Origin: an uncultured Thermotogae bacterium
Lineage (GTDB): Bacteria > Bipolaricaulota > Bipolaricaulia > UBA7950 > UBA9294
Length of the DNA stretch: 64,000 nucleotides
Reading direction: 5' to 3'
Assembly (NCBI GenBank): GCA_964466035.1
Contig: CAYXLR010000007.1
Span: 25,299 to 89,298 of the forward strand
The notes below the pieces were generated by a model. The model was not told where the DNA came from and ran no database searches. It worked only from the letters and a program-made list of their open reading frames with translations. Both the position numbers and the translations under genes were made by a program. Of the stretch, positions 17,753 to 20,581 are shown in pieces. How positions within the stretch are numbered: the stretch's first letter is position 1; each line of letters begins with the position of its first letter.

Positions 17753-19261
17753 GTGGCGAAGACCCGAAAAGACGAGATCACGGCCATCCTGAAGGAGCAG
17801 CTGAAGGGGCTCGAGTACGACCTCGAGATGCAGGAGGTCGGGATGGTCGTCGAGGTCGGGGACGGGATCGCCCGGATCTACGGGCTCGAGCGGGCGATGG
17901 CCTCCGAGATCGTCGAACTGCCCGGCGAGCTGTACGGGCTCGTCCTCAACCTCGAGGAGGAGTCGGTCGGCGTGGCGCTGTTCGGCGACAGCGAGCGGGT
18001 CCAGGAGGGGGACGAGGTCCGGCGGACCGGCCGGGTTCTCGAGACGCTCGCCGGAGAGGGGATGCTCGGCCGGGTCGTCGACCCGCTCGGACGCCCGCTC
18101 GACGGGGGAGATCCGATCGAGTCGGCGGAGACGCGGAAGGCCGAGATCATCGCCCCCGGCGTCGTCAAGCGGCAGCCGGTCGACACGCCGCTCCAGACGG
18201 GGCTGAAGTCGATCGACGCGCTGACGCCGATCGGGCGCGGGCAGCGCGAGCTGATCATCGGCGACCGGAGGACCGGAAAGACGGCGATCGCCCTCGACAC
18301 GATCGTCAACCAGAAGGGCGGGGACGTCGTCTGCGTCTACGTGGCGATCGGCCAGAAGGCGTCGACGGTCGCGCGGATCATCGAGACGCTGAAGAGCCAC
18401 GGAGCGATGGAGTACACGATCGTCGTGGTCGCCGACGCGAACGCGTCGACTCCGATGCAGTACCTCGCGCCGTACGCGGGCTGCACGATGGCCGAGTACT
18501 TCACCTACCAAGGCCGCGACGCGTTCATCGTCTACGACGACCTGTCGAAGCACGCCGTCGCCTATCGAGAGCTGTCGCTCCTCCTCCGGCGGCCGCCGGG
18601 GCGAGAGGCGTATCCGGGCGACATCTTCTACACGCACTCCAGGCTGCTCGAACGGGCGGTCCGGCTCTCCGACGAGCACGGCGGCGGTTCGCTGACCGCC
18701 TTTCCGATCATCGAGACGAAGGCCGGCGACATCACCGCCTACATTCCGACGAACGTGATCTCCATCACGGACGGCCAGATCTACCTCGAGACCGACCTGT
18801 TCAACCAGGGGTTCCGCCCGGCGATCAACGTCGGCTATTCGGTGTCGCGCGTCGGCGGCGAGGCGCAGATCAAGGCGATGTCGCAGATCGCCGGCGAGCT
18901 GCGGCTGGAGCTGTCGCAGTACCGCGAGCTGGAGGCGTTCGCCGAGTTCTCGGCCGACCTCGACGAAGAATCGAAGGCGCAGCTGGCGCGCGGCGACCGG
19001 CTGATGGAGATCCTCAAGCAGGAACAGTACCAGCCGATGCCGGTCGAGGAGCAGGTCGTCTCGCTGTTCGTCGGGGTGGAGAACCACGTGGCGGACATCG
19101 AGGTCGGCGAGGTCCGTCGGTTCGAGCGGGAATGGCTCCGCTTCGTCCGTGAGGAGCACGACGAGATCCTCGCAGCGCTCCGCGACGAGAAGCGGCTGTC
19201 CGACGAGCTGCGGGAGAAGCTCGACGTCGCGGTGGCCGAATTCAAGGAACGGTTTATGTGA
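17753..19261 (+). CDS. atpA: F0F1 ATP synthase subunit alpha
   Basis: 502 aa; Walker [10 protein letters not shown], canonical alpha sequence throughout. Confidence 0.97.
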
Positions 19262-19289
19262 ACCGGTGGTCTCTCCGACCACCGGTTCA
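19259..19289 (+). terminator. 13-bp perfect hairpin spanning the atpA stop codon (no U-tract)
   Basis: TGAACCGGTGGTC-TCTCC-GACCACCGGTTCA. Confidence 0.4.
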
Positions 19290-19412
19290 CGGAGGAGAAC
19301 GCCGCGGGCGGCATTCTCCTGATGGGCGAGCCGCGCGATCTGACGATCGCGGAGAAGAACGCCGACGGACGGCGTTCTTCCGTGGGATGGGAAGCGAACT
19401 GAGGAGCACGAC

Positions 19413-19500
19413 GTGGCACAGCAGGTACGGGCGATTAAGGGACGCATAGGGAATATGGGACTCATCGTGCTCGGGATGTTCGTGCGGCCTGGCGGCCGCG
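19413..19500 (+). repeat. 88-nt repeat unit 1: decoy copy of atpG codons 1-14 (GTG start, RBS GAGGAG) plus shared tail
   Basis: First 42 nt identical to atpG 19727..19768 except at 2 positions (nt 1 G vs A, nt 6 A vs G); differs from unit 2 at 4 of 88 positions. Confidence 0.85.
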
Positions 19501-19555
19501 TAGGAGAATGTCGCGGGGCGGCATTCTCCTGATGGGCGAGCTAAGGAACTGAGGC

Positions 19556-19643
19556 ATGGCACAGCAGGTACGGGCGATTAAGGGACGCATAGGGAATCTG
19601 GGACTCATCGCGCTCGGGATGTTCGCGCGGCCTGGCGGCCGCG
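19556..19643 (+). repeat. 88-nt repeat unit 2: decoy copy of atpG codons 1-14 (ATG start) plus shared tail
   Basis: ATGGCACAGCAGGTACGGGCGATTAAGGGACGCATAGGGAAT then CTGGGACTCATCGCGCTCGGGATGTTCGCGCGGCCTGGCGGCCGCG. Confidence 0.85.
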
Positions 19644-19726
19644 GCGAAGAACGGCGCTTTGCGCCGTTCTTCGGTGGGCGCAGCAGATGTACGATGGAGC
19701 TTGCGAGGGAGTAGGGAAACAGACAC

Positions 19727-20581
19727 ATGGCGCAGCAGGTACGGGCGATTAAGGGACGCATAGGGAATATCGAGAACATCGCGCAGATCACCCGCGCGAT
19801 GAACGCGATCGCGATGACCAAGGTGACGCGCATGAAGAAGCGCCTCGCCGCGGTCCGTCCGTACCTCGAGGAGCTCGAAGGCTACATCGCGACGTTGATC
19901 GGCCGGATCCCGCCGGACGCCGAGCCGCATCCGCTCACGGCGCCGAACGGATCGGAGGCCGTCGGCGTGATGGTGCTGAACGCGGATCGAGGGCTGTGCG
20001 GACGGTACAAGGGGGACATCAACCGGAAGGGCGAGGAGCTCCTCGGAGCGTCGGCACCGGACGCGGAGCTGCTTGCGGGCGGCGAGAAGGCGCGGGTCCA
20101 TTTCGCTCGGCGCGGGATCGAGCCGTTGCGGAGCTACGCGCACACCTACGACCAGCCGACCGCCGAGACGGCGCGCCGGATGGCCGGCGATCTGATCGAC
20201 CTGTACCTCGACGGGAGCGTCGGGAGGATCGTGCTCGTCTACATGCGGTTCGTCTCCGATCTGAAGCAGGAGCTGGTCGTGGAGGAGTTCTTGCCGTTCT
20301 CGATCGAGCCGTCGGCAAACGACGTCCTCGTCGAGCCGTCGGTGCAGGAGATGCTCGACGTCTCGCTCCGGCTGAGTCTGCAGGGCAGGCTGTACGCGGC
20401 GCTGCTCGAGACGAAGACGAGCGAGGACGCGATCCGCCGGCAGGCGATGAAGAACGCGACCGACAACGCCGAGGATCTGCTGAAGGGTCTGACCCGCGCG
20501 TACAACAAGGCGAGACAGCAGGAGATCACGCGCGAGATCGCCGACATCATCGGGGGCGCGGAGGCGCTTCGCACGACCTGA
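19727..20581 (+). CDS. atpG: F0F1 ATP synthase subunit gamma
   Basis: 284 aa; [32 protein letters not shown] and C-terminal [15 protein letters not shown] are canonical gamma. Confidence 0.95.

Follow-up and report, generated by a model that had tools for sequence, protein, structure and literature searches.

In the atp operon of Escherichia coli, the need for unequal subunit amounts from one mRNA is solved after transcription, with short spacers and mRNA folding; work of the McCarthy laboratory from 1991 to 1994 reportedly traced the coupling of atpA to atpH to mRNA structure. To our knowledge, neither duplicated start regions nor upstream open reading frames (ORFs) have been described in that operon. 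Here we describe a different arrangement in the atp operon of an uncultured Bipolaricaulota bacterium, located in a 64,000-nt stretch of contig CAYXLR010000007.1 (the window). The spacer between its genes for ATP synthase subunits alpha (atpA) and gamma (atpG) is 465 nt long and contains, among hairpins, an array of extra copies of the 5' end of atpG.

Coupling of a short ORF, upstream or intergenic, to a downstream gene is known from several bacteria; examples are the leader ORF of iraD (PMC5574718), an intergenic small ORF preceding a Mg2+ transporter gene of Salmonella (PMC8092293), and the upstream ORFs of the B12 switches of Mycobacterium tuberculosis (PMC11260477). The ORFs described here resemble these in being short, in having a Shine-Dalgarno (SD) sequence of their own, and in ending at or beside the start of the gene concerned, and in the known cases translation of the short ORF is thought to decide access to that start. 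In contrast to them, the present ORFs are copies of the downstream gene's own start, stand two to three in series, vary in number between strains, and lie between two subunit genes of an operon rather than in a 5' leader. A quantitative model of reinitiation in E. coli gives a nearly constant efficiency for stop-to-start gaps of 0 to 25 nt (PMC4538824), and gaps in this range, which permit reinitiation, recur in the array. A literature search for precedents found no description of upstream ORFs that stand in series between atpA and atpG, derive from the start of the very gene that they would regulate, and differ in number between strains.

Anatomy of the atpA-atpG spacer

Our preferred reading, to which we give an even chance of being correct, is that the array consists of locus-specific duplicated initiation regions that would be tolerated or selected only in the form of a chain of short ORFs keeping the spacer translated up to atpG. 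The features on which this reading is built are given below; numbers with the prefix L denote loci of other genomes, and those with the prefix X denote sequencing runs and strains.

17753 to 19261, plus strand: atpA, ATP synthase alpha subunit (Pfam ATP-synt_ab_N, ATP-synt_ab, and ATP-synt_ab_C), with stop codon TGA at 19259 to 19261
19258 to 19290, plus strand: perfect 14-bp hairpin whose 5' arm includes the atpA stop; equivalents over or beside the stop in L001, L002, and L003
19294 to 19319, plus strand: hairpin B1 (GGAGAACGCCGC / CGGCATTCTCC), followed by the linker TGATGGGCGAGC, which is repeated exactly after B3
19334 to 19351, plus strand: hairpin A1 (CGCGATC-TGAC-GATCGCG)
19354 to 19380, plus strand: hairpin B2 (GAAGAACGCCG / CGGCGTTCTTC), 11 bp, perfect
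19396 to 19412, plus strand: initiation region 1 (GAACTGAGGAGCACGAC), with SD GAGGAG at 19401 to 19406, 6 nt before GTG
19413 to 19532, plus strand: pseudo-start ORF 1, 39 amino acids (aa), made of atpG codons 1 to 14, a 26-nt tail, A2 (19484 to 19499), and B3 (19502 to 19530), with a TGA stop
19545 to 19555, plus strand: initiation region 2 (GAACTGAGGC), a weaker SD-like copy of region 1
19556 to 19714, plus strand: pseudo-start ORF 2, 52 aa, made of atpG codons 1 to 14, a tail, A3 (19627 to 19642), B4 (19645 to 19673), and a third start fragment (19674 to 19693), with a TAG stop
19705 to 19726, plus strand: present atpG initiation region (GAGGGAGTAGGGAAACAGACAC), common to L004 and strain X19
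19727 to 20581, plus strand: atpG, ATP synthase gamma subunit (PF00231, 2.6e-74), parent of the repeated 5' segment

From 5' to 3', the spacer runs through the stop hairpin, B1, the linker, A1, B2, initiation region 1, copy 1 with its tail, A2, B3, and the linker again, and then through initiation region 2, copy 2 with its tail, A3, B4, a degenerate third fragment, and the present initiation region to atpG. Each of the two copies comprises atpG codons 1 to 14, copy 1 beginning with GTG at 19413 and copy 2 with ATG at 19556. Over codons 3 to 14, both match atpG at 36 of 36 nt, and a 34-nt segment within these codons, GCAGGTACGGGCGATTAAGGGACGCATAGGGAAT, is present in three exact copies (19421, 19564, and 19735), where shuffled sequences lead to an expectation of none; codon 2 is GCA in both upstream copies and GCG in atpG. 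The copies lie in 88-nt units (19413 to 19500 and 19556 to 19643) with exactly four differences, at 19413, 19455, 19468, and 19483, and every tail difference between them changes an amino acid. The repeats stand head to tail with a spacing of 143 nt and 89% identity over 114 nt, and the complete units are 143 and 171 nt long, with hairpins as their only content. A sequence-only reading of this DNA had described the 465-nt spacer with two start copies and four related hairpins, the GTG with GAGGAG 6 nt upstream and the ATG at 19556, and the 88-nt units with four differences and ORFs of 39 and 52 aa, all of which we recovered (the repeat three times, the B hairpins four times). It made no mention of a weak third start fragment, GGCGCAGCAG, at 19677 to 19686.

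A counterpart of initiation region 1, GAACTGAGGAGCA, lies immediately 5' of the atpG ATG in L061, and the SD of copy 1 is stronger than that of atpG itself. ATG 19556 is preceded by an SD-like sequence (AAGGA/GAGG), as are most of the copies in relatives. A 14-nt sequence, TGAGGAGCACGACG, that stands both in atpA (19150) and ahead of copy 1 (19400) was taken as a chance match; 9 nt of it are the ancestral SD region, present in L061.

The atpA-atpG spacer is the only long junction of the operon, which by Pfam has the order atpI-like, B, E, F, H, A, G, D: atpF and atpH overlap, and the atpH-atpA and atpG-atpD junctions are 8 and 23 nt. Gamma is identified by its full-length PF00231 match and by the position of its gene between atpA and atpD, and full-length AtpG relatives begin at the same start residue throughout. 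The window is without atpC (epsilon) after atpD, where the next ORF (22044 to 22727), a methyltransferase by Pfam, overlaps the atpD stop; L011 is likewise without atpC in this position. We also noted that the tail of copy 2 (19605 to 19630) could pair with atpG codons 22 to 30 (19792 to 19817), with 81% complementarity in 26 nt and two perfect 8-bp blocks, and that the two C-to-T differences of copy 1 would turn pairs of this duplex into G-U. The alignment of the tail with the reverse complement of 19792 to 19817 scores 27, a value reached by 1% of random-segment controls, with six tests made, so that it is marginal and a lead only.

Frame pattern of the pseudo-start ORFs

The ORF was followed from every recognizable pseudo-start in the window and its relatives (n = 14), the two other frames serving as 28 comparisons. 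In 13 of the 14 cases, the ORF stops 1 to 23 nt before the next start, versus a gap of 0 to 25 nt in 2 of the 28 alternative frames (Fisher test, 5e-8, uncorrected for relatedness). The gaps are 23 and 12 nt in the window, 12 nt in L004, 10 and 12 nt in L005, 12 and 1 nt in L016, and 3 nt in each of L010, L011, L012, L036, L039, and L040. The features expected of translational coupling, a start with its own SD-like sequence and a stop within about 25 nt of the next start, are thus found together in the array.

Alternative frames often stop after 0 to 14 codons, and such early stops are absent from the pseudo-start frame. The ORFs change in length by whole codons: those of L010, L011, and L012 are 34, 28, and 31 aa, respectively, and ORF 2 of the window, at 52 aa, differs from its 26-aa orthologue in L004 by a 78-nt module of exactly 26 codons. 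In strain X19, the stop of the first ORF overlaps the next ATG (TGATG; GAGTGATGG) and the second ORF stops 12 nt before atpG, while the corresponding junction of strain X24 reads TAG-CAA-GTG.

Gene callers annotate these ORFs as hypothetical proteins. The peptides are unconserved beyond their atpG-derived part, and we rejected a functional micro-protein: ORF 2 has no Pfam match, its sole homologue among 5.8 billion proteins is itself, and the peptide tails vary by lineage. Differences between copies and resident atpG number 14, 6, and 33 at codon positions 1, 2, and 3. Selection on the peptide in the atpG-like part was also set aside: the pattern is codon-structured, but synonymous drift of the parent gene together with conversion would give nearly as much, and it is not decisive.

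The sequence-only reading had proposed, as one of two possibilities, translational decoys or processing sites tuning gamma expression. Posttranscriptional tuning of gamma remains our best guess, but a decoy in the sense of a dead-end start fits less well than a chain, because each ORF is open through the hairpins and stops 1 to 23 nt before the next start in the window, in independent lineages, and in strain variants. True decoys would be extra initiation regions that compete with atpG for ribosomes, or that titrate a factor or small RNA binding the atpG start region; the identity of codons 3 to 14 with atpG and the stronger SD of copy 1 are what such a model would want. Yet the identity is explained by gene conversion, the copies of L004 and X19 differ from resident atpG at 9 to 13 positions, competition in cis needs no ORF end beside the following start, and neither a complementary RNA nor a candidate for the binding factor came to light. 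We consider decoys in this sense very improbable.

Occurrence of the array in independent data

The array is not an assembly artefact, because independent assemblies give the identical sequence. The exact 52-aa protein of ORF 2 is encoded on five contigs from other samples, and the 801 nt from 19100 to 19900 recur base for base in three of these contigs, one with 19468 T>C. Read-level support, which the sequence-only reading had named as a safeguard against a collapsed or expanded tandem repeat, is present: in Logan unitigs from four salt-marsh runs, all junctions are covered (atpA-repeat, repeat-unit 1-repeat, repeat-unit 2-repeat, and repeat-atpG). The runs holding the window sequence are salt-marsh metagenomes.

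In run X1, unitig depth is 20.3 on the atpA side, 12.5 in unit 1, 20 in unit 2, and 21.1 on the atpG side, and k-mers common to two copies and to all three have depths of 31.6 and 50. These depths suggest that unit 2 is present in all genomes and unit 1 in about half; runs X2 and X3 agree with this more loosely. Two alternative single-copy alleles do not fit, x + y being 32.5 in X1 against a flank depth of 20. Assemblers break contigs at this locus, as in L002, whose contig starts inside its spacer. L078, where only 50 gamma residues were matched, proved to be a scaffold gap rather than a copy.

An artefact that strings strain variants together, as short-read metagenome assemblies can do when they mis-thread repeats, is one form of an explanation that we regard as extremely unlikely; its other form, named as an alternative by the sequence-only reading, is that the copies are scars of mobile elements at the 5' end of atpG, each supplying a replacement start. 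Four independent assemblies agree, and the depths of X1 misfit alternative single-copy alleles. For scars, it may be said that reiteration of a gene end is typical of integration sites and that a real case with cargo occurs at dppB in the same window. The array, however, has neither cargo nor integrase nor att-like organization; its units measure 93 to 171 nt, searches of the window, species genomes, and metagenome contigs place its motifs at this locus only, and strains differ by whole repeat units.

The dppB locus, to which the array had been likened, proved to be a different phenomenon, in which relics flank real inserted genes. The last 30 to 32 codons of a dppB-like permease (54384 to 55331) recur at 56667 to 56750 (78% aa identity) and at 57697 to 57786 (87%), the whole region spanning 55238 to 57792. 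Between the copies lie a 354-aa ORF of unknown kind (55486 to 56550) and, on the minus strand, a HepT/MNT toxin-antitoxin pair (56901 to 57528). This looks like successive insertions at the 3' end, each restoring that end, and is unlike the cargo-free atp array.

Distribution, origin, and turnover

The closest gamma proteins, with up to 90% identity, all belong to metagenome-assembled genomes of Candidatus Bipolaricaulota. A comparison with the spacers of relatives, which the sequence-only reading had suggested, shows copies in one clade and in L036, L039, and L040. Most relatives have a spacer of 0 to 6 nt (51 of 71 junctions), in which they resemble E. coli. On a neighbor-joining tree of alpha plus gamma, the expanded spacers fill one large clade (the window, L001 to L007, L009 to L014, L016, L025, and L061), and the second expanded group, L036, L039, and L040, is separate from it and has sisters with 3-nt spacers. 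Partial copies of the atpG 5' end were found in L002, L004, L005, L010, L011, L012, L016, L036 (two), L039, and L040.

L004 contains an orthologue of the window copy with an identical 28-nt tail, and its layout recurs in an independent metagenome contig. AtpG of the window and of L004 are 85% identical, and the adjoining atpG-like part differs at 9 of 42 nt while the tail is the same; relative to its own resident atpG, the L004 copy differs at 13 of 42 positions. The unit of L036, L039, and L040 (102 to 105 nt) runs from the atpG start to codon 19 or 20, followed by a short hairpin on GGACATCGC, then GG.TAG plus 3 nt, and then the next ATG. This last part of the unit is similar to the junction of atpA stop and atpG start in their relatives, which is what a tandem duplication spanning that junction would produce.

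We pieced the structures of the strains together by hand, using contig joints, inserted letters, and loose ends. In the X17 contig, 19413 is joined straight to 19728, so that there is no copy and initiation region 1 serves atpG. X19 has copy 1 and then a second copy without A3 and B4 (78 nt, 26 codons), as in L004. X24 is a variant without A1 and B2, with a copy-to-copy unit of 93 nt. Strains with zero and with two copies, other combinations of units, and the intermediate depth of unit 1 mark the array as a copy-number-variable tandem repeat, and differences by whole units are what unequal recombination between tandem repeats predicts. In X19 and X25, copy 1 has 9 differences from the window among 30 atpG-like positions, whereas about 130 nt of flanking sequence differ only at 19468 and 19483; a diverged atpG-like part inside near-identical flanks points to gene conversion.

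A scan of 538 kb of related DNA for direct repeats at close range showed them to be concentrated at the atpA-atpG junction. Among 185,579 species genomes and a metagenome collection, the conserved tail motif was found outside the window only at the same locus of one relative, and the hairpin motifs were likewise found nowhere outside the locus in the window and these collections, except at that locus of one relative. Searches with the B arm, the A pattern, and the tail being confined in this way, we rejected a dispersed mobile hairpin element of the REP/BIME or MITE type. An origin by local tandem duplication of the atpG initiation region together with its hairpins, with subsequent unequal recombination and conversion, is well supported by these comparisons.

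The same turnover is what a neutral, unstable tandem repeat would show, and this is the main rival to the chain of short ORFs, although we think it rather unlikely. The junction would be a hot spot of duplication and template switching through GC-rich quasi-palindromes, and units would come and go by unequal recombination to no useful effect. The frame pattern would then reflect only the purging of harmful forms, for example those that read through the atpG start, lengthen gamma, or leave a long stretch of RNA naked. Copy number does vary within one population and between close strains, zero copies included; the peptides are unconserved outside the atpG-derived part, with tail differences that all change amino acids; and spacers of 0 to 6 nt are the majority among relatives. 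Mutation by template switching at quasi-palindromes is well established (PMC7202029), and perfect hairpins could be its products rather than selected RNA structure. On the other hand, early stops would purge read-through equally well and yet are absent from the pseudo-start frame, the tail shared by the window and L004 is identical beside an atpG-like part that has diverged, and compensatory changes keep the hairpins across species, even in spacers free of copies.

Hairpins of the spacer

The spacer contains four B hairpins (GRAGAAC...GTTCTYC; at 19294, 19354, 19502, and 19645) and three A hairpins (GCGRYC...GRYCGC; at 19334, 19484, and 19627). The motif GRAGAAYGNCG has 10 matches in the 64 kb versus 1.7 expected, 8 of the 10 inside the spacer, whereas matches to the A pattern elsewhere in the window are chance-like. 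The hairpin that the sequence-only reading placed over the atpA stop is present, but its stem is 14 bp rather than 13. Across eight genomes, 14 B hairpins have 92.9% of cells paired and compensatory changes in 6 of 12 pairs, a pairing score reached by 0 of 500 shuffles and not approached by any register slide. In 16 A hairpins, 96.4% of cells are paired and two pairs covary. The atpA-stop hairpin has compensatory double changes in strains X17 and X19, at 19263/19285, 19264/19284, and 19267/19281.

A and B hairpins lie directly 3' of atpA even in relatives free of copies (L001, L003, L006, L013, and L061), from which it follows that the copies were duplicated along with a preexisting two-hairpin spacer. 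When the two bases ahead of it are included, the 5' arm of B reads GAGGAGAACG; this is identical to the SD sequence before the ATG of the L004 copy and is close to initiation region 1 of the window (GAGGAGCACG), and the B arm of L006 and L013 is GAGAACATCGC, i.e., atpG codons 16 to 19. Because of these matches, the comparison suggests that the hairpins may be former pieces of the start region turned palindromic. Quasi-palindrome template switching together with unequal recombination (PMC7202029) would account for arms equal to functional sequence in this way, as well as for the perfect or near-perfect stems, the compensatory-looking changes, and the differences by whole repeats; it is, however, a mutational mechanism and not a function. 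Against the idea of palindromic relics, local alignments of the window hairpins with atpG codons 15 to 55 are no better than those of random window segments, and A and B as reshaped copies of these codons were rejected, with similarity at background except for the tail of copy 2.

The whole spacer folds better than shuffles (z = -4.6). No terminator consensus was found in 18800 to 20200 and no T-run follows any hairpin, which leaves a transcription attenuator with a leader peptide without its stem-plus-T-run site; a promoter consensus was not found in the spacer either. In Rfam 15, no family reaches its gathering threshold, the best match being CRISPR-DR20 at 26.2 bits versus 42, to hairpin B4 only. 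The sense strand of expanded spacers is rich in G and poor in C (mean skew 0.19 versus 0.075 in flanking genes), which fits SD-like content and a poor substrate for Rho. REP/BIME elements are intercistronic palindromes that stabilize upstream mRNA and are dispersed in hundreds of copies; the hairpins share with them GC-rich stem-loops, the lack of a T-run, and a position directly after a stop inside an operon but, unlike them, are confined to one spacer.

The hairpins might accordingly be the functional part, as intercistronic stem-loops with a role in blocking 3'-5' decay, in processing, or in the attenuation of transcription behind atpA, with the copies as passengers; this we judge distinctly unlikely. 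Each expanded spacer of the clade opens with a hairpin at or a few nucleotides from the atpA stop and then a B-type hairpin (also in L001, L003, L006, L013, and L061), both types covary, and the spacer as a whole is well folded. Against this model, the hairpins lack a T-run and a terminator consensus, and attenuation behind atpA would reduce beta as well, of which as much is needed as of alpha. The model also leaves unexplained why no stop interrupts the ORFs within the hairpins and why they finish beside the following start. Hairpin-centered RNA processing is compatible with either the chain or the neutral repeat.

At 24592 to 24646, inside a long ORF (23672 to 25288), the window has two adjacent perfect hairpins, GCAGGAGATCC..GATCTCCTGC and GAGGAGATCCGC..GCGGATCTCCTC, whose GGAGATC/GATCTCC arms are reminiscent of the B hairpins.

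Other repeats in the window and at related loci

A 29-nt motif, CCCGGGYTCTCCAATCGTTCACCYMGGCT, is present in four copies (76 to 100% identity) at 5634, 7639, 7754, and 11136 of the window, the first of them about 600 nt downstream of a tRNA-Ala gene (4934 to 5010). Among relatives, a run of nine C lies in the atpA-atpG spacer of the L004 species in two independent assemblies (L004, about 2860 to 2870, and L080, 7738 to 7746). L011 has two noncoding 135-nt repeats, 97.8% identical, between atpD and a tRNA gene (5376 to 5806), each including CTTCTATCGCC-GAATG-GCGACAAC. In L073, from Pseudonocardiales, 15-nt tandem repeats at the 3' end of atpA just before atpG (2767 to 2979) would add a repetitive C-terminal extension of about 100 aa to alpha.

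Proposed mechanism

Under the preferred reading, in which chained short ORFs keep the spacer under translation, the SD, start codon, and first 14 to 20 codons of atpG were duplicated together with the two hairpins that follow atpA in the clade. Unequal recombination between units then adds or removes copies and leaves the array polymorphic in the population, and gene conversion from atpG holds codons 3 to 14 of the copies identical to the gene. The versions expected to persist are those whose pseudo-start ORFs read through both kinds of hairpin and leave no more than about 25 nt between their stop and the following start. Ribosomes loading at the strong first SD (GAGGAG, 19401 to 19406) would translate ORF 1 and then ORF 2 and terminate beside the atpG start, so that the long intercistronic RNA would be either base-paired or covered by ribosomes, and initiation at atpG would be fed by termination-reinitiation, by ribosome-driven unfolding, or by both. 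The anatomy, the duplication origin, the variation in copy number, the frame pattern, and the covariation of the hairpins are shown by the sequences; from the frame pattern, we infer that the ORFs are translated and feed atpG and that gamma is lowered. One likely effect would be that gamma, needed once per complex, is uncoupled from alpha, needed three times, and set lower; another would be the protection of atpG-atpD from polarity or RNA decay. The chain could thus set gamma below alpha or, equally, be the condition under which a long spacer is free of polarity on atpG-atpD.

Several observations weigh against this mechanism. The frame statistic represents about five related groups with at least two origins rather than 14 independent events, and L002 is an exception, its first ORF stopping 97 nt before atpG, yet 19 nt before a 6-codon mini-ORF. 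The structure prediction proposed by the sequence-only reading gave a well-folded spacer as a whole, but the start regions of atpG and of the individual copies are not sequestered in predicted local folds (z from -1.75 to +0.17), which leaves coupling by unfolding unsupported. Reinitiation efficiencies measured in E. coli are low (PMC4538824), so that a pure relay would pass few ribosomes. L001, L003, and L061, with hairpins and no recognizable copy, and X17, with no copy, manage without, which makes the copies dispensable. Beta (atpD) lies downstream and is needed at three per complex, so that a reduced flux into atpG must not reach atpD. The two RNA runs give negligible coverage of the spacer, and X25, the sole RNA-like run (its kind is guessed), yields one 173-nt contig.

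A stronger version of the chain, which we consider more doubtful than any reading above except decoys and scars or artefact, would make the array a selected, rapidly switching rheostat. Gain and loss of units by unequal recombination would alter the number of serial reinitiation steps between the first strong ribosome-binding site and atpG, and subpopulations would differ heritably in gamma (and ATP synthase) output. In this version, B hairpins would have arisen from ribosome-binding sites that are now locked in a closed form.

How subunit ratios of the 3:1 type are obtained from one mRNA is a classic question, answered so far mainly for E. coli. The atpA-atpG spacer of these bacteria would show a different and evolvable route in an uncultured phylum, in which a gene's own start is duplicated in series and the copies are kept only as ORFs chained to the real start. 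If this is true, the locus is a natural example of the tuning of expression by the number of reinitiation steps, and it would mean that long intercistronic spacers must stay translated or folded.

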